The notes below the pieces were generated by a model. The model did not search any database and was not told the DNA's origin. It saw only the letters and a program-made list of their open reading frames with translations. From a virus (lineage: Duplodnaviria > Caudoviricetes): 24,693 nt of DNA. The position numbers and the translations under genes are program-made. Of the stretch, positions 7,792-24,292 are shown in pieces. Where the stretch lies: positions 1-24,693 of IMG/VR virus record IMGVR_UViG_3300018080_000572; one strand, written 5' to 3'. How positions within the stretch are numbered: position 1 is the first letter of the stretch; each line of letters starts with the position of its first letter.

Positions 7792-8211
7792 ATGGCACTA
7801 ACAGACAAAGTAGAAATCGTATTTTCAAGTACGGGGCGAAGAAGAAAAGTCCTAATATCTTGGCTATTGAGTGAATCGGCAATTTTTGCAATGGAAGCAA
7901 ACGAGTTCATCATTACAGACACTTCGATTAAGAACAAGGTCAATGGGGAAACGTTTATGGGGCAACCTATTAAACCTCAGTTAATAATGCGTTACCCGTA
8001 CCTTCGGACAATCTTTGCCGAGCCTGTTGAAGATGAATTAGAGGACGCTGAAGAAACGGTATTGGAAGAAATTCTAAACGAACCAACCGAACTTTCAGAA
8101 CTAAGCGTTGAACAGCTTAAATCAATCTGTGATGAACGCGAAATCGAATACGATGGACGTAAAAGAAAAATAGAATACTTTATTGAATTAATCGAACAAA
8201 ATGGAAATTAA
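7792..8211 (+). CDS. Acidic protein with C-terminal helix-extension-helix (SAP/HeH/Rho-N-like) domain
   Basis: LSELSVEQLKSICDEREIEYDGRKRKIEYFIELI pattern. Confidence 0.6.
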   Translation: MALTDKVEIVFSSTGRRRKVLISWLLSESAIFAMEANEFIITDTSIKNKVNGETFMGQPIKPQLIMRYPYLRTIFAEPVEDELEDAEETVLEEILNEPTELSELSVEQLKSICDEREIEYDGRKRKIEYFIELIEQNGN

Positions 8212-9013
8212 AGACATTGCAGGTTACTTAGGAATTGAACTAGGTGAAGATGACAACCTAGACACGTTTAAAAACAAATTCAGTTCTTCATTCATTCGCA
8301 AGGATAGAGCAGCAGAAGATGAAGATGTTGCAAAGGCGGTAATGGGTAAACAGACTCGTGAATACGCTACTGAAATTAAACGTGTAGCAAAGGAAAGCGG
8401 AATCGAATTAAGCGAAGAGGAAAGCAAGCTACCTGTTGCAGACCTTCTAAGGGTTATTCCAACTAAAAAGGATGAGTTCTATACCTCACAGATTGAAAAG
8501 CTAAAAGAAGGGTCTAAAAAGCCGTCAGAACAGGTGCAAGAGTGGGAACAGAAGTTTAACCAACTGAATACAAAGTATGAGGACACGGTTAACTTGTTGA
8601 ACAACACCAAAAGCACGTTGCAAGAAAAAGAACAGGAGTTTGTAACGTTCCAAAAAAACTTCAAAAAGAACGAGGTTGTTAAGGACGTTTGGTCAAAGGC
8701 TAATTCATTTATTAGCGAAACTGCCAGCGACCTAGAGCGAACAGGATTCCAGTCTTACATCAATCAGAATTACACGATTGACCTAGAAGATGACAAGCCA
8801 GTTATTTTGAAAGACGGACATCGTATTCCAGACCCGAATAAAGCAGGTGAGTTCTTAGACCCTGTAACGGCTATCCGAATGGAAGCTGAAAAGAACAAGA
8901 TTCTGAAAGTAACCGATGCGTCAAAGGTTACACCACCGCGTCAAGAAGCACCAAAGAACTTTACTCCCGAAGGTACACGGACAACGGGTCGTAGAGTAGT
9001 ACGTCATAAGTAG
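8201..9013 (+). CDS. Putative capsid scaffolding protein
   Basis: 270 aa, charged with a central coiled coil and a basic low-complexity C-terminus. It is the last core gene before the island that precedes the capsid gene. Confidence 0.6.
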   Translation: MEIKDIAGYLGIELGEDDNLDTFKNKFSSSFIRKDRAAEDEDVAKAVMGKQTREYATEIKRVAKESGIELSEEESKLPVADLLRVIPTKKDEFYTSQIEKLKEGSKKPSEQVQEWEQKFNQLNTKYEDTVNLLNNTKSTLQEKEQEFVTFQKNFKKNEVVKDVWSKANSFISETASDLERTGFQSYINQNYTIDLEDDKPVILKDGHRIPDPNKAGEFLDPVTAIRMEAEKNKILKVTDASKVTPPRQEAPKNFTPEGTRTTGRRVVRHK

Positions 9014-9084: not shown

Positions 9085-9235
9085 TTTAATAGGAAGCTCG
9101 CCAAAGTATGTGATTGGTACGCTTATAACGGATAGGGAGTTCCCTGTCGGGCGCACTTACCAATCGTTTCTAAACCCTGACACTTAGACCTCAAGTTCCA
9201 CTTGAATCGAATATAGTGTTGGGGTTTTTTATTTT
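9085..9235 (+). ncRNA. Putative small structured RNA ending in a terminator
   Basis: Near-consensus TATATTTA at 9075-9082. Helix GATTGGTA(9112-9119)/TACCAATC(9158-9165) encloses GATAGGG-AGTT-CCCTGTC. Terminator AAACCCTGACACT(9172-9184)/AGTGTTGGGGTTT(9215-9227) followed by Ts. Confidence 0.5.
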
Positions 9236-9263
9236 GTAGTTTCAAAACAAAACGTTAAGTTTG
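9233..9263 (+). promoter_or_regulatory. Bacteroidota -33/-7 promoter driving cassette array A
   Basis: TTTG (9233-9236), 19 nt spacer, TAAGTTTG (9256-9263). Confidence 0.7.
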
Positions 9264-9271
9264 ACTTATAA

Positions 9272-9398
9272 TTACGGTAGGTATATGGTTAGTGCGCCTA
9301 CCACAAAACTTCCTTACTCGCCAATTTGGCGGGATAATGGCGAGATAGAACAAAAGCACCGACCTAACTTGGCGCATTAACTATATACATTGTTGTGT
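9272..9398. mobile_element. attC-like recombination site 1 (left outer box degenerate)
   Basis: 18-bp stem GTATATGGTTAGTGCGCC(9281-9298)/GGCGCATTAACTATATAC(9371-9388) with two G.T pairs, followed by GTTGTGT at 9392. Confidence 0.7.
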
Positions 9399-9416
9399 GC
9401 CGTTAATTTTAGAACT

Positions 9417-9635
9417 ATGATTCAAAATTGGAATGATAAAATAGACTTTGGTAAATTTAAAGGACAAACAGTAAAGCAAGTTTTTGAATATGATGCGACC
9501 TACTTGTGGTGGGCAATGATGAATACTGATAGAACCAACTTTGAAAAAGAAGTAAAGGATGCTATTCAAAAACGAACAGAAGAGATAGATGCTGAAAAGT
9601 ATGAAGATTTATCTTGGGGTGACTTTCATACTTAA
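9417..9635 (+). CDS. Cassette gene: DUF3820/exonuclease X C-terminal-like small domain protein
   Basis: ATG 9417; IDFGKFKGQTVKQV...DATYLWW motif. Confidence 0.7.
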   Translation: MIQNWNDKIDFGKFKGQTVKQVFEYDATYLWWAMMNTDRTNFEKEVKDAIQKRTEEIDAEKYEDLSWGDFHT

Positions 9636-9639
9636 TGGC

Positions 9640-9699
9640 ACACAACGATGTAGCTATGGTGCGTATCCCGTAGGGTATGCACCATAGCGTGTGTTGTGT
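9640..9699. mobile_element. attC-like recombination site 2
   Basis: ACACAAC(9640-9646), then 16-bp stem GCTATGGTGCGTATCC(9653-9668)/GGGTATGCACCATAGC(9673-9688), then GTTGTGT(9693-9699). Begins just after a stop codon. Confidence 0.8.
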
Positions 9700-9733
9700 G
9701 TAGTGCGGATTATTAACGATAAATTTAATTAGA

Positions 9734-10033
9734 ATGAAAATACCGAAAAAATTCAAAGTCTTTGCGTCTACAATAAATGTAGGCTTTGAAAATGCGAGAT
9801 TAAGTAACGAAGGAGTGCTTGGTGATTGTAGTTTTACTGATAACCAGATAAATATTTGCACTGAATACAAAGGCGAAAAAGTATCTGAATGTAGTACGAT
9901 AGACACATTCTACCATGAAAAAGTACATATTATTTTAGATGCTATGGGAGAGCATGAACTATCTAAACAAGAAAAATTTGTAGAAGTATTTGCGAGGTTG
10001 CTAAGGCAGTCTGATGAAAGTGCAGAATTTTAG
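9734..10033 (+). CDS. Cassette gene: small zincin-like (HExxH) metallopeptidase
   Basis: LGDCSFTDNQINI...TFYHEKVHIILD...EKFVE pattern. Confidence 0.7.
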   Translation: MKIPKKFKVFASTINVGFENARLSNEGVLGDCSFTDNQINICTEYKGEKVSECSTIDTFYHEKVHIILDAMGEHELSKQEKFVEVFARLLRQSDESAEF

Positions 10034-10063
10034 CATTACCCCCAACTAGTTGCTAAACGCAAC
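10033..10063. mobile_element. Terminal half-site of array A (attI-like or truncated attC)
   Basis: GCATTACCCCCAAC is complementary (11/14 Watson-Crick) to the cassette start GTTGTGTGTAGTGC. It is followed by TAGTTGCTAAACGCAAC, with no long partner arm. Confidence 0.45.
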
Positions 10064-10155
10064 GACAAATTTGACTTATAAAAAAACTTTTAATAAAGGT
10101 TTTTAATGAAAACAGTATTAACGCATCGTTTTCATGGTTTCGTTGTTTTGGTTAT

Positions 10156-10183
10156 GCCCCCTTGATGCGTGGGGGCTTTTTTT
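10156..10183 (+). terminator. Intrinsic terminator between the convergent arrays
   Basis: GCCCCC/GGGGGC stem followed by T7. Confidence 0.75.
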
Positions 10184-10703
10184 ATTTAAGCAACCTTTTT
10201 GCTTTGTAAATGAGATTAGGCGTTAAACCAGCGTAAGGGTCAACCCAAATAAAGTTTTCGCGCTGCCACCATAGCACATCACTATCATCATCAAATATTA
10301 CGTATTGAAGGTTTGACACTTTTTCGTTAAGTATTCCTTTGTTGTTTTCAATCCATGCTTTGATTTCACAACCACGAGGAACTGAGGTGTTTCGCCAATC
10401 TTCGCCCTGATTATGACCAAACCATAAGTAAGGCGTTTTTCCAATTATTTCACCTTTAAAGCCGAACCAATCAAACAGTTCAGTTAAATCTTCAACCGTT
10501 CTACCGTTTCGCCATGATGAAGATATAACCACTTTTGCGCCTGTTGCATCAATTAAATTGTTTAACAATCCAACCTTTTCAGGGTCAATATCATGCGCTC
10601 CATTTGGCGCGTCTGTGGTTAACTCCTTTCTTTTATCGCATTGCCGTTGATAAAATAGTTGGTGGTTCAGAACCCCGTCTATGTCTAAAAAAATCAGTTT
10701 CAT
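10182..10703 (-). CDS. HAD-superfamily phosphatase (Swiss-army-knife RNA repair-type HAD domain), copy 1
   Basis: IFLDIDGVLN, VVISSSWR, RGCEIKAW, YVIFDD and GLT motifs. Confidence 0.88.
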   Translation of the reverse strand: MKLIFLDIDGVLNHQLFYQRQCDKRKELTTDAPNGAHDIDPEKVGLLNNLIDATGAKVVISSSWRNGRTVEDLTELFDWFGFKGEIIGKTPYLWFGHNQGEDWRNTSVPRGCEIKAWIENNKGILNEKVSNLQYVIFDDDSDVLWWQRENFIWVDPYAGLTPNLIYKAKRLLK

Positions 10704-10721
10704 CTTATGTCAAATTACTGT

Positions 10722-10782
10722 AGCCAACATCACCTAAAAAATACCTACGGTCGCTGCGCTATTTTTTATCCTACCGTTGTGT
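10722..10782. mobile_element. attC-like recombination site 3
   Basis: AGCCAAC(10722-10728), 6 nt, TAAAAAATA(10735-10743)/TATTTTTTA(10760-10768), 7 nt, GTTGTGT(10776-10782). Confidence 0.65.
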
Positions 10783-10826
10783 GTAATAAAATAAAACCCA
10801 CCGCACTTTGGCTGCTAAGGCAGCCA

Positions 10827-11726
10827 TTATGAAAAAACCTCACAGCTTTCTTCACATCCATTAGTTACGTCAAGTTCAGTTCCATCATGTAAAATTGAAA
10901 CTTGATAATTCGTAAGGTGGCGTTCATCAATTGCACGTTCAAAATTTTCTTCTTTTCCAATGTCAAACACATCATTCACGGTCTTATGCTCTCTAAAAAA
11001 GTGATGCGGTGCTTTATAGGTTTTGTGGTCTTTTCTTCCAGCTGGTGTAAACTCTGAAAATTCACTTTCCATGCGCTTAAATACTTGAAACCAATCAGGA
11101 GTTTCAACGCTAATAGTTGCCAGTTTTCTAAATGATTTCTTCCAACAGGTTTTGCAGTTTCCCTCATAGGTTTTAATTCCTAATCGAAAAGGCATCTTAG
11201 ACCAAAATGCGTTAATTAAAGGTTTGCTTATGTCGGCATGAATTAGCGGATAGTAATGTTTTCCAGCTCTATCAATTTCATCTGCACGAATACCAATTGC
11301 GTAGGTAATATCTTTCGGCTTCCAACCGATTGAACTCATATATCTGTTCATGGGGTATTCCTTCAATTCCCTTGTGCAAATCATGTTTTCCATGTTGGGT
11401 ATTCCTTGGCGTTCAATCATCTTTCTAAAAGGGTGGTTTTGCCAACCATTTGCAACTTCAATCGGATTATCGCTTCTGTAAGCAGTTTGAAAATTCACTT
11501 GCTTAAAAGATGGTTTTTCGTTCACCACATCAAATTCCACCCACGTTACATTAAGTCCAAAATACTTATCGCATTGGTCAACAAATTCAAGTGTTTCTTC
11601 CGCTTCTTCGCCAGTATTGGCAAAGATGAATTTCATATCGTATTCATGTGATTTATTGAGCAATAGCCAATTGCACATATAAGCCGATGTTTCTCCTCCA
11701 GAAAATGATACTACTAATTTTTCCAC
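10827..11726 (-). CDS. Cassette gene: PAPS reductase-like / PP-loop adenine nucleotide alpha hydrolase with Cys motifs
   Basis: VVSFSGGETSAYM PP-loop, FANTGEE, CTRELK, IGIRADE, GNCKTCWKKS and C-terminal CEESC. Confidence 0.88.
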   Translation of the reverse strand: MEKLVVSFSGGETSAYMCNWLLLNKSHEYDMKFIFANTGEEAEETLEFVDQCDKYFGLNVTWVEFDVVNEKPSFKQVNFQTAYRSDNPIEVANGWQNHPFRKMIERQGIPNMENMICTRELKEYPMNRYMSSIGWKPKDITYAIGIRADEIDRAGKHYYPLIHADISKPLINAFWSKMPFRLGIKTYEGNCKTCWKKSFRKLATISVETPDWFQVFKRMESEFSEFTPAGRKDHKTYKAPHHFFREHKTVNDVFDIGKEENFERAIDERHLTNYQVSILHDGTELDVTNGCEESCEVFS

Positions 11727-11770
11727 CCTTCTTTTTATTTTACTTGCCTACGCACAAAGCGACCGCACAC

Positions 11771-11861
11771 ACACAACACCAGCTATACAAAAAAGCGGAC
11801 AGGTTGGCGGTAAATTGAAAGTTCATCTTAGTGCTTCTTTGCATAGCTGTTTCCGTTGCTA
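11771..11861. mobile_element. attC-like recombination site 4
   Basis: ACACAAC(11771-11777), 17-bp stem CAGCTATACAAAAAAGC(11780-11796)/GCTTCTTTGCATAGCTG(11833-11849), then GTTGCTA at 11855. The two stem mismatches become G.T pairs on the minus strand. Confidence 0.78.
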
Positions 11862-12386
11862 CAATAATAGCCGCTGTGCCTTGTATATCAGGTGTGGCGT
11901 TAATCCAGCGTAAGGGTCAACCCAAATGAAATTATTTCTTTGCCACCAAAGCATGTCGCAACCATCATCGAATATCACATATTGAAGTTTTGACATCTTC
12001 TCCCCAAGTATTCCTTTGTTGTTTTCAAGCCATGCTTTGATTTCGCAACCGCGCGGAACAGATGTGTTACGCCATTCTTCTCCTTGGTCGTGATTGAACC
12101 ACAAGTAAGGTGTCTTGCCAATTATCTCACCTTTGAAACCAAACCAGTCAAACAATTCTTTCAAATCATCAATCGACCGACCACTTCGCCATGAGGATGA
12201 TATGACAACTTTTGCGCCAGTAGCATCAATCAGGTTATTTAGTAATCCTATCTTTTCGGGGTCAATATCATGCGCCCCATCTGGAGCATTTTCAGGAAGT
12301 TCCTTCCATCTATCGGCTTGACGTTTTTCATGCCAAAACAATTGACTGTTAAGAACTCCGTCTATATCTAGGAATATCAATTTCAT
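11859..12386 (-). CDS. HAD-superfamily phosphatase (Swiss-army-knife RNA repair-type HAD domain), copy 2
   Basis: Same motifs as 10182..10703; roughly 80% amino-acid identity by eye. Confidence 0.88.
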   Translation of the reverse strand: MKLIFLDIDGVLNSQLFWHEKRQADRWKELPENAPDGAHDIDPEKIGLLNNLIDATGAKVVISSSWRSGRSIDDLKELFDWFGFKGEIIGKTPYLWFNHDQGEEWRNTSVPRGCEIKAWLENNKGILGEKMSKLQYVIFDDGCDMLWWQRNNFIWVDPYAGLTPHLIYKAQRLLL

Positions 12387-12419
12387 GTTTACTGTTTATT
12401 TATTTACTAATATAGTTAA

Positions 12420-12770
12420 TTCTGCTTTTGTTAGATTCAAGGTTTGTGAAGGTCAGCACAAGCAAGTCTAACCCCCTACCCCCTAAAGAGAGTTAGACTT
12501 ACCTGAACACATTCTGCTTCCGTTGAGTTCATAGGAATTAGTTTTGGCTGATAGCGCGTAGCAAGTCTGAGAAGGCGCGTTTCTATCATTTAACAGCGGG
12601 TACACTCATTAACTTGGTATTGAGTTGACCTAATCGTTTAATGGACCCTACTGTTTTTATTTTGTTTGGCTTAGAACAATACCCAAAAAAAACCCCGTCA
12701 ATAGTGGAGGCTATATCAGGGGTTCTTATGGTATCCTTGTAATCACTGCCTCCACAATGATTGAATTATC
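12420..12770 (-). ncRNA. Putative long structured non-coding RNA/leader
   Basis: No listed ORF. Multiple helices, with G.U pairs favouring the minus strand, lie downstream of a minus-strand TATATTTG box. Confidence 0.5.
12685..12724 (-). terminator. Intrinsic terminator/attenuator in the leader
   Basis: Minus strand reads AACCCC-TGATATAG-CCTCCA-CTATTGAC-GGGGTT followed by a T-run. Confidence 0.7.
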
Positions 12771-12775
12771 TGATG

Positions 12776-12783
12776 CAAATATA
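12776..12783 (-). promoter_or_regulatory. Bacteroidota -7 promoter box (leftward)
   Basis: CAAATATA on + equals TATATTTG on -; divergent from the capsid promoter. Confidence 0.65.
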
Positions 12784-12940: not shown

Positions 12941-13993
12941 ATGAGTTACACTCCTTCAACTCTTGTAGCTTGTCCTAACATACAAGAGAGATTAGATAGC
13001 GTGTTTGAAAATGAAAACGCACGCTTTTTTCAGGACAAAATTCCATTCTCTGAATTTTTGATGTCTCCACTCAACCGTAATGAGCTTGCTCAACGTGTTG
13101 CACCGGGACGTTCCAAAATCAGAACAGTTGATTTAACGTATCAACCACGAATCCTTCAAAGTGAGAAATTTACCAACAGCTCAGACTATTGTACTGCAAC
13201 ATCCGAGCGTGGTGATACTTCTGCATCTTACGAAATCGACACTACTCAAAACGTAGGGTTTGAACAAAAGTTTGATGTTGAGAAGTTGAAATCATCTTGT
13301 GAAGATAACGAGATGTGGTTTATGGATCAAGTTGGTAAGATGGTAGCGGCTACTGACGTAGCTGTTAACGATAAGAACGCTTCACAGGCTAACGCTCTAT
13401 TGGGCGGATGGTCAACTGATGTTTCAGGTGTTCCTTTCGTGACTTTGAATGGTGATATTTTGGAAGTTCAGACGCTTGTTCCTTCAAGCACTTACGAACC
13501 ATTTCCGTCAACGCTTCAGGGCATTCAATCTGCATTGAGCGCGTCAAGTTTCGGTAACTCTACGTTGGTTGGTGGTTTCCAACTACACAACTACTTAGAG
13601 CTTATTCGTAACGGATGTTGCACAGACTACGGATTGGACATTGCAGGAATCCAAGCTGATTACGGTATTGCCTCTATTTACGATAGAGCAGTAGCATCTA
13701 CGCAAGGCAACAACGCGACTGCTTGGGCGGTAGCTAACGGAGCATTGCAAGTGCTTTACTACAACCGTTGGTCAGGTCTTTTCGAGGCTCAAGACGCCAA
13801 TCAGTCTTACGGTCAAATTATGGGTGCTTTGGGTATTCCTTACGATTTGGTCATTAAGCATGATTGCGGTGTGATTCAAGTAACCGTAACAGCCACAACT
13901 AAGTTGGTAGCACTACCTGATGATATGTATCAGACAGGTGACCACTTGGATGGTGTGAAAGGTTTCGCTGAAATCAACGTAGTTAATTCGTAA
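12941..13993 (+). CDS. Putative major capsid protein
   Basis: 350 aa with its own promoter and a downstream terminator, biased codon use, and a position in the head module near scaffold and portal. Confidence 0.75.
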   Translation: MSYTPSTLVACPNIQERLDSVFENENARFFQDKIPFSEFLMSPLNRNELAQRVAPGRSKIRTVDLTYQPRILQSEKFTNSSDYCTATSERGDTSASYEIDTTQNVGFEQKFDVEKLKSSCEDNEMWFMDQVGKMVAATDVAVNDKNASQANALLGGWSTDVSGVPFVTLNGDILEVQTLVPSSTYEPFPSTLQGIQSALSASSFGNSTLVGGFQLHNYLELIRNGCCTDYGLDIAGIQADYGIASIYDRAVASTQGNNATAWAVANGALQVLYYNRWSGLFEAQDANQSYGQIMGALGIPYDLVIKHDCGVIQVTVTATTKLVALPDDMYQTGDHLDGVKGFAEINVVNS

Positions 13994-23267: not shown

Positions 23268-24292
23268 ATGAGCAGAACAGTTAAAGGTCAAATCGTTCTA
23301 GAATACTTGAACGATGGATTGACAAAAGAGCTACCTAGCAAATCACTTGCAGAACTTATTTACAAGAAGAACGTCAAGGTATTTAAAGACGTTGAAAATG
23401 TCCGTAGCATTATACGGTATTATAGGGGTCAGCGTGGTAGCCAAGATAGAAAACATCGTGAAGGCTCTGACCTTTTAACAGAAAAAGCACAACACGCTAA
23501 AGCATTAGGAATTGGTAACCCGTTCGGATTACCTGACACGGATGAAGATGAGTGGGATGCGTATGTACTACCAAAAGGCGCAACTCGAATACTTCTTTTG
23601 TCGGATATTCACGTACCTTATCACAACATTGAAGCGTTGACCATTGCCATCAATTACGGCAAGGAAAAGAACGTTAACGCGGTTGTGTTGAACGGTGACA
23701 CGCTGGATTGCTATGCGTTGTCGCGTTATGAAAAAGACCCGCGTAAAAAAAGTTCAGCGAAGAACTAGAAGCGTGTCGGCAACTATTGGAAATCATTCAG
23801 CGTGAGTTGCAATGCCCTATCTACTTTAAACTTGGAAACCATGAGGAAAGGTATGAGGCTTACTTGCGAACCAAAGCACCTGAACTACTTGGAACGTCTG
23901 AATTTACTTTAGACACTTTGCTAAAGTTCGGTCAATACGGTTGTGAGTTAATACAGGACAAACGAATTATCAAAGCTGGACACTTGAACATTCTACACGG
24001 TCACGAGTTCGGGCGTTCTGTTTTCAGTCCTGTTAACCCAGCTAGAGGGTACTACATGCGGGCTAAGGCTTCGGTTATCTGTGGACACAACCACCAAACA
24101 AGCGAACACACGGAAAACAACTTAGAAGGCAAGATTGTAACTACATGGTCAACGGGTTGCTTGTGCGAAATGCACCCACAGTATATGCCGATAAACAAAT
24201 GGAATCATGGATTTGCATACGTGTCTGTCGACCCTGCCGATGGCAGTTACGAGGTTGACAACTTCCGAATTATCGAAGGTCGTTTACGATAG
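23268..24292 (+). pseudogene. Calcineurin-like metallophosphoesterase split by a -1 frameshift at an A7 run
   Basis: ORF1 has SDIH and NGDTLD; ORF2 has GNHE, HGH and GHNH. The second frame is open from the A7 run at 23745-23751 (KFSEELEACRQLLEII). Confidence 0.8.

Follow-up and report, generated by a model that had tools for sequence, protein, structure and literature searches.

Hairpin-led gene cassette arrays in a recombinase-less tailed phage, likely exchanged in trans by a tyrosine recombinase other than IntI

The viral stretch IMGVR_UViG_3300018080_000572 (IMG/VR, positions 1 to 24,693; the whole 24,693 nucleotides are called the window here) carries two converging arrays in which hairpin sites alternate with single genes, in the manner of integron cassettes. 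The window's phage is a tailed phage, which is also represented by a complete record of 42,991 bp with terminal repeats (G001) that is 99.97% identical. Among named phages its portal protein is matched only by the Polaribacter phages P12002L and P12002S, and therefore the host is presumed to belong to the Bacteroidota. The cassette region sits between a putative scaffold gene (8201-9013) and a putative capsid gene (12941-13993), two labels taken from position and size, with no family match for either. In the relatives L002-L004, whose capsid is 78% identical, the scaffold and capsid genes lie side by side and the whole insert is absent; thus the 3.9-kb block between them reads as an insertion. 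Its cargo comprises an ExoX-like_C protein (72 aa) and a phrog_1233 protein (99 aa) on the plus strand, and a HAD_SAK_2 protein (173 aa), a PAPS-reductase-like protein (299 aa) and a second HAD_SAK_2 protein (175 aa) on the minus strand. A blastn search of the block against annotated phages returned matches at the level of genes only. The features are as follows, with a stroke in AA/C marking the exchange point discussed below:

9237-9271, plus strand: first copy of a 35-nt repeat, 80% identical to 10047-10081; possible promoter of the left array.
9273-9394, plus strand: hairpin site 1, with the variant core TAC (9273-9275) and GTT (9392-9394); leads cassette A.
9417-9635, plus strand: cassette A gene, 72 aa, ExoX-like_C (PF20600); cassette end AA/C at 9644-9646.
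9644-9695, plus strand: hairpin site 2, with AAC (9644-9646) and GTT (9693-9695); leads cassette B.
9734-10033, plus strand: cassette B gene, 99 aa, phrog_1233; cassette end AA/C at 10044-10046.
10044-10081, plus strand: terminal AAC and unpaired half-site, overlapping the second repeat copy; end of the left array.
10157-10184, no strand assigned: GC hairpin and T-run; convergence point of the arrays.
10182-10703, minus strand: HAD_SAK_2 gene (HAD-173), 173 aa; has a cassette start (site 3) and no cassette end.
10378-10382, no strand assigned: HAD switch interval, equal to 12055-12059; paralog join of the sister strain.
10726-10778, minus strand: hairpin site 3, with AAC (10726-10728) and GTT (10776-10778); leads HAD-173 and closes the PAPS-reductase cassette.
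10827-11726, minus strand: PAPS-reductase-like gene, 299 aa, PF01507, phrog_424; cassette cargo.
11775-11857, minus strand: hairpin site 4, with AAC (11775-11777) and GTT (11855-11857); leads the PAPS-reductase cassette.
11859-12386, minus strand: HAD_SAK_2 gene (HAD-175), 175 aa; has a cassette end and no leading hairpin.

Reading the letters confirmed what a preliminary description of the window had reported at this level, namely four hairpin sites, three matches between the ends of a cassette (complementary at 11 of 12, 11 of 14 and 9 of 9 positions) and two arrays that converge. The hairpin and T-run at 10157-10184, a likely terminator, is their meeting point. The layout is of the integron type, with AAC and GTT cores (TAC at site 1), an imperfect palindrome and an unpaired spacer. 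Chance was assessed on the 15,256 GTT/AAC pairs of the window that lie 150-1100 nt apart, the real pairs being counted among them; 9 of 10 non-core matches occur there at a frequency of 0.00007, 6 of 6 at 0.0006, and at least 7 of 10 matches outside the cores at about 0.0045. In a stem scan of both strands of G001 (core, spacer, stem, spacer, core), sites 1, 2 and 4 scored 37-40 against a background maximum of 27.5, and 12 shuffled genomes yielded no site of at least 37, their maximum being 33.5. Free energy compared with shuffles placed only site 2 far beyond expectation (z -6.1), followed by site 1 (-2.1) and site 4 (-1.25). Site 3 (10726-10778) folds weakly, with a stem score below 22 and a z of -0.5. 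At all four sites the gene strand is the better-folding strand.

The polarity of these units is revealed by their natural breakpoints. For cassette B there are 81 related loci, and comparison of the 26 full-length close ones, 17 of them with a called upstream hairpin, gave 136 pairs. The cassette B genes are at least 97% identical in 7 of the 136 pairs; in all seven the upstream hairpin is identical, and in six the DNA past the downstream AAC differs, the seventh sharing both flanks. The DNA preceding the upstream AAC differs in the pairs L054/L055 and L056/L061, while L043/L044 and L064/L065 share their upstream context and inform on the downstream break only, and L060 is cut short. Cassette A is known from four loci, of which the fourth is this phage; the other three (L283-L285) present one leading hairpin in three upstream contexts, and their two cassette ends co-vary. 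An all-versus-all screen of segments at least 95% identical gave 46 boundaries, with 25 near AAC, 1 near GTT, 3 near both and 17 near neither. Taken together, the breakpoints of both cassettes and this screen indicate that the cassette unit is a hairpin and the gene that follows it, with the exchange point at AA/C on the coding strand. Thus, the mobile single-gene cassettes with complementary ends proposed earlier are supported, and the crossover proposed for them, with a G/TT position on the gene strand and a site that comes after its gene, is not supported, as natural breaks fall at AA/C and the hairpin leads.

Sister strains were compared through the contigs of 8 of 22 runs, and uncovered parts of contigs were not counted as evidence. 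The hairpin of site 1 is preceded in runs X2, X3, X5 and X6 by different DNA ending in AAC, and this hairpin and cassette B are joined at AAC to other neighbours in these samples, in both cases seen at loose ends. Run X2 also holds a joint of 9342 to 10052, in which a site resembling hairpin 1 is broken at an internal AAC and continues into sequence resembling the terminal half-site, which suggests the use of a secondary core within a hairpin.

A link between such sites and an enzyme is found in other phages. At locus L008, a homologue of the PAPS-reductase is itself carried as a cassette, whose two ends complement each other at 14 of 15 nt, and lies directly before a 267-aa tyrosine recombinase; cassette-type ends were seen by eye in 4 of 14 loci homologous to the PAPS-reductase (L008, L009, L011 and L012). 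Recombinases of the L008 type occur in 80 phage loci, 55 of which have enough flanking DNA for site counts, and in these 55 there are 165 sites upstream (146 kb) versus 1 downstream (158 kb), with at least one upstream site in 53. All but one of the 165 sites (164) share a single polarity, the longer spacer following AAC; the genes between sites are on the same strand in 103 of 108 cassettes, and agreement between the two ends of a cassette averages 6.2 of 7 nt (n=111), compared with 3.0 for the two ends of a single hairpin (n=164). A conserved site of the AAC-TAYTATAT type, noted by eye, precedes the enzyme in other phages.

The 165 phage sites define a signature of four bases, which was derived without the sites of the window: G at +1 after AAC (98%), and T at -1 (98%), A at -7 (93%) and T at -15 (97%) before GTT. 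On their gene strands the window sites carry 16 of 16 family bases, against 2 of 16 on the opposite strands (4 of 4 per site, versus 0-1). Site 3, which is supported by the family bases only, is therefore accepted despite its weak fold; its family-profile score is 8.0 on the minus strand and -15.1 on the plus strand. By the four bases, a long spacer after AAC and a gene on the same strand, the window sites belong to the reversed-polarity phage cassette family that the 165 sites define. Downstream of prokaryotic relatives of the enzyme, mostly from Bacteroidota and about 40-50% identical, lie 26 sites of the opposite polarity, with 2 more upstream (63 of 80 loci). Of the 26 sites, 12 follow a neighbouring gene of the same orientation, 2 show the opposite arrangement and 12 are unclear; read antisense, these sites show G+1 in 96%, T-1 in 92%, A-7 in 81% and T-15 in 85%. 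With the chromosomal sites downstream and after genes and the phage sites upstream, chromosomes thus use the site family in the classical layout and phages in a mirror layout.

The fold and the enzyme both depart from the integron pattern. The family spacers are of 5-6 and 1-4 nt, the long one after AAC, and the stems are unbroken, as they are in sites 1, 2 and 4, which show no extrahelical bases of the attC kind. Only 11 bulges on the 3' arm occur among the 165 sites, which were picked by a stem score that disfavours bulges, so that the pairing analysis is partly circular. The T at -15 faces a G in 147 of the 165 sites, and likewise in the window at sites 1, 2 and 4, giving a G·T wobble in stems that are otherwise Watson-Crick; pairing was read anchored on the cores, as RNAalifold gave 0 pairs on 16 short sites, for which sequence alignment fails. 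The wobble may stand in for the extrahelical bases of attC, and since on the other strand it becomes a C·A mismatch, it could serve to select the strand. The four linked enzymes scored 135-162 bits on the integron-integrase model TIGR02249, all below its cut-off of 265, and across the IntI insertion the L008 enzyme is about 48 residues shorter than VchIntIA (32 versus 80 residues aligned); the linked recombinase lacks the insertion specific to the IntI family. The names attC and IntI-like, as first applied to this locus, do not hold in the strict sense, given stems without extrahelical bases and a linked enzyme that falls below the cut-off and lacks the insertion.

This phage does not encode such an enzyme. 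A six-frame search of G001 with a profile of 12 related recombinases gave a best E of 0.17 (control 9e-117), and Pfam showed no recombinase among the 32 window proteins, where an integrase had already been said to be missing, or among 25 larger proteins from the rest of the genome. The earlier suggestion of a recombinase encoded elsewhere in the genome is excluded by the profile search for the complete record, and a recombinase acting in trans is supported. We consider it probable that these are recombinase-less arrays of hairpin-then-gene cassettes exchanged at AA/C on the gene strand, likely by a trans-acting, non-IntI tyrosine recombinase working on the folded coding strand. The enzyme, likely short and of the type linked above, would be supplied by a co-infecting phage, by a prophage or by a chromosomal system of Bacteroidota; it would treat the coding strand, folding and cutting it, in the way that IntI treats the bottom strand of attC, with strand choice set by the G·T wobble that lies 15 nt ahead of GTT. 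Ordinary homologous recombination likely contributes to the acquisition of cassettes as well.

A conventional account would make the arrays attC-site clusters without integron-integrases (CALIN), that is, true attC sites trailing their genes and recombined at G/TT by a host IntI. The AAC and GTT cores, the unpaired spacer, the complementary ends and a G after AAC like that of attC bottom strands (PMC2727003, in its accessible part) agree with it, and such clusters are published for virulent phages, with 5 of 6 sites recombined by IntI1 according to the accessible text of PMC9892861. It is nevertheless improbable, given breaks at AA/C with a leading hairpin, spacers of 5-6 and 1-4 nt with unbroken stems, and a linked enzyme without the IntI insertion; moreover, the P12002L site that has this layout is the one of the six not verified with IntI1 in that same text. 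Even less probable, to the point that we give it very little weight, is that the hairpins are RNA elements only (terminators, processing sites or 5' stabilisers) with no DNA step. The coding strand is indeed the better-folding one and site 2 was listed as terminator-like; however, Rfam returned no family match to the hairpins at the gathering score, bacterial sites carry the signature on the non-coding strand, and the AA/C breakpoints, the co-varying cassette ends and the 165:1 bias beside the recombinase would be left unexplained.

The right-hand block introduces a second route of gain or loss. The HAD-173 and HAD-175 genes are 77-79% identical in DNA, and the cassette start at HAD-173 and the cassette end at HAD-175 agree in 12 of 13 nt, allowing one gap, which makes the inner ends complementary. 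Contigs in runs X2, X3 and X5 join 10377 to 12055 in exact register, skipping 1677 nt, so that a single HAD gene results and the PAPS cassette is gone. A chimaera of 31-mer assembly is unlikely, since the longest exact match between the two HAD paralogs is 23 nt. Pieces of the two-HAD form are present in runs X4 and X9, which are from other studies, and the left array is unchanged in sister strains, its X2 pieces being identical to the window. The presence/absence breakpoint of the right-hand block in the sister strain thus falls within the HAD paralogs and away from the core triplets, which for this block is one of the outcomes that the preliminary description had named as contrary to its reading.

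Most likely, with a chance somewhat better than even, the right-hand block entered by capture of a circle, as opposed to having been lost by deletion in the sister strain. A two-cassette circle (HAD and PAPS-reductase) would have crossed, through homologous recombination of the Erf type, with a HAD gene of 79% identity already in place, and a single crossover would leave two reciprocal chimaeras flanking the PAPS cassette, as in the window. G001 has Erf and RusA genes, and Erf, a Rad52-like enzyme, is efficient at recombining DNA of 78% identity (De Paepe et al. 2014, PMC3945230); therefore homologous capture fits, and we infer that a circle excised site-specifically was taken up in this way. 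The converse order is possible too, at rather less than even probability: the older state would be the HAD-PAPS-HAD form, three cassettes whose outer ends have eroded, from which homologous deletion would have produced the strain with one HAD. Direct repeats of 79% identity are readily deleted by Erf-type enzymes, outer sites frequently decay, and X4 and X9, from other studies, cover the two-HAD form. Opposed to this order are outer ends that both lack any remnant of a site, inner ends complementary across the paralogs (12 of 13, one gap) and more distant relatives without the whole insert. A search for HAD relatives in viral contigs found one distant locus only.

Several points weigh against the exchange by a trans-acting enzyme and against the capture proposed here. 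The recombinase-linked sites elsewhere are mostly TAAC/GTTA, and the CAAC/GTTG form of the window sites is a minority among them (about 5%), so the L008-type enzyme may not serve these sites. Pattern searches did not link the terminal half-site to a recombinase. Where cassette B genes are 85-92% identical, their upstream hairpins average only 53% identity, meaning that hairpins are also replaced or drift, and many cassette B relatives have lost one or both sites; the screen of 46 boundaries used loose windows, with cassette B as its main contributor. A single study supplied the HAD join, run X3 holds a further mosaic HAD allele, and 30 homologues split at the join, together with GC content at third codon positions (GC3), did not separate gain from loss. 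Recombination, circles and binding were not observed, the runs having been compared as contigs.

Related to these points is a reading in which the arrays are inert passengers, originating from the reversed system, arriving as blocks by homologous recombination and no longer moved site-specifically; it agrees with exchange in trans on origin and differs on present activity. We regard it as a serious contender, at a little under even probability. The absence of a recombinase from G001, the TAC of site 1, the mutated end of cassette B (10044-10046, relative to its relatives) and the weak site 3 speak for it, as do a sole strain-level loss that breaks in the HAD paralogs and a left array that has a 35-nt repeat of 80% identity on either side and is unchanged in sister strains. 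On the other side, sites 1, 2 and 4 retain stems of 15-17 pairs and all family bases, and hairpin 1 and cassette B have other AAC-joined neighbours in the same samples, at loose ends. Present site-specific activity in this phage, a passenger without an enzyme, is unproven.

Exchange in trans remains our preferred reading, and if it is true, a widespread family that swaps cassettes precisely with neither the IntI insertion nor extrahelical bases would amount to a second way of achieving single-strand recombination. Such a family would offer a testable mechanism for the integron-like arrays known as rAID and for precise gene swapping in phages. New from this phage are enzyme-less passengers that keep intact sites, and a strain pair in which a cassette block was gained or lost by homologous recombination, linking both routes. 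More broadly, and only tentatively, since we hold it to be doubtful as a whole, Bacteroidota phages may share a pool of mirror-image cassettes with a minimal tyrosine recombinase that has no IntI insertion and chooses the coding strand by the G·T wobble in place of flipped-out bases. Recombinase-free lytic phages would tap this pool both in trans at the sites and by Erf-mediated capture of free circles into a homologous gene already present, an event of which the HAD-PAPS-HAD block would be the trace. Tools trained on attC would probably under-call or mis-orient such arrays.

Around the left array, the 35-nt direct repeat (9237-9271 and 10047-10081, 80% identical) acts as a bracket, and excision of the cassettes at AA/C would bring its copies into tandem; in related strains 9269 is joined to 10154 across letters that were not read. 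A box in the first copy (9256-9263) resembles the -7 promoter motif of Bacteroidota. The motif occurs 21 times in the window versus 31 expected and is not enriched, so the case for the box is one of position, and a sigma-70 promoter scan was at chance level. The terminal half-site has no partner arm, as the GTT at 10151-10153 is AAA in related strains. A fifth hairpin at 10044-10153 was rejected on this ground and for its fold (z -1.6). An identity of the half-site as an attI found no support: its exact pattern matched this phage only, a degenerate pattern led to 13 loci of which 12, on inspection, have no recombinase or array, and it aligns poorly to recombinase leaders, including the AAC-TAYTATAT-type site. 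Upstream, 9105-9236 is a structured intergenic element (RNA fold z -4.65) that follows a promoter-like stretch and ends in a T-run hairpin; it is common to contigs of other phages, has no significant Rfam match and is possibly a small RNA. The leader of HAD-175, about 390 nt (12390-12780, minus strand), contains several hairpins, with a long stem at about 12450-12510 (z -1.6 and -2.4).

Elsewhere in the genome, the early region outside the window has a third array (G001 about 31530-31870; L024 about 11640-11970), with one strong site at G001 31582-31669 in the stem-scan class of sites 1, 2 and 4, a very short geneless unit with matching ends before it, and a small gene and a half-site after it. 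Genes for an N6/N4 methyltransferase and a Mom-family protein lie at 7202-9366 of L024, in the same genome, and may, together with the PAPS-reductase-like cassette, relate to DNA modification. A metallophosphoesterase gene is split in the window by a one-base difference (23268-24292), probably an assembly error, and is whole in G001, with 341 aa (L024 1466-2491).

Among known systems, the nearest are the phage CALINs. Qi et al. 2023 (PMC9892861) describe 17 of them in virulent phages, and IntI1 recombined five of the six sites tested, the exception, not verified as recombined, being the P12002L site of the family layout. Integrase-less arrays, hairpin-bounded accessory genes and a lytic-type phage are shared; in the accessible text the sites are treated as classical attC, and hairpin-first polarity, a non-IntI enzyme and natural breakpoints are not described. 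In the broad sense, the present locus is a CALIN, as at least two cassette sites lie in a stretch of a few kb without an integrase, in function though not in canonical attC. P12002L itself reads in the same way: its attC1 has the family layout and 3 of 4 family bases, its attC2 reads as a half-site, and 4 of 5 scanned minus-strand sites carry all four family bases on the gene strand; it is also devoid of a recombinase by profile search. At 29.2-39.3 kb (L188) it holds more family sites than the two tested in print, near methyltransferase and Mom genes; being in culture, it would serve readily as a system for experiments. Our literature search, for which most subscription papers were out of reach, found no paper on hairpin-first, non-IntI phage cassettes.

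The rAID arrays of Bacteroidales (Ross et al., bioRxiv 10.1101/471110; PMC12247911), in the accessible parts of both accounts, are arrays with an XerD-like recombinase and integron-like motifs, and they share with the phage family such a recombinase, co-oriented genes and integron-like intergenic motifs. The Bacteroidota relatives of the phage enzyme, whose downstream sites bear the family signature, are likened to rAID by its description only. The two differ in that the chromosomal arrays lie downstream with sites after genes (12 versus 2 of 26, with 12 unclear), whereas the phage arrays lie upstream with sites that lead. By definition, rAID has a 5' XerD-like recombinase more than 44% identical to the B. 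fragilis enzyme and at least two co-oriented downstream genes; here there is no recombinase, and the phage arrays are upstream of the enzyme. The Erf system has in common with this phage a repeat identity (78%) similar to that of the two HAD genes and an Erf encoded in G001, and differs in that capture of cassette circles is absent from the accessible account of De Paepe et al. 2014 (PMC3945230).

Classical integrons share the AAC and GTT cores, the G after AAC, the unpaired spacer, the variable loop and the complementary cassette ends, and also, as we infer for the phage sites, a cut at AA/C on the better-folding strand (PMC2727003 and PMC4889954, accessible parts). Integrons are cut on the bottom strand, which is the non-coding one, between C and A (PMC2727003), and by analogy the coding strand here would play the role of the attC bottom strand. 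The family differs in having its genes on the folded strand, after the hairpin, with an asymmetric short spacer, in a conserved G·T wobble in place of an extrahelical G or T, and in a linked enzyme without the IntI insertion. The locus thus works like an integron cassette array and is, by three tested features, not a member of that class.

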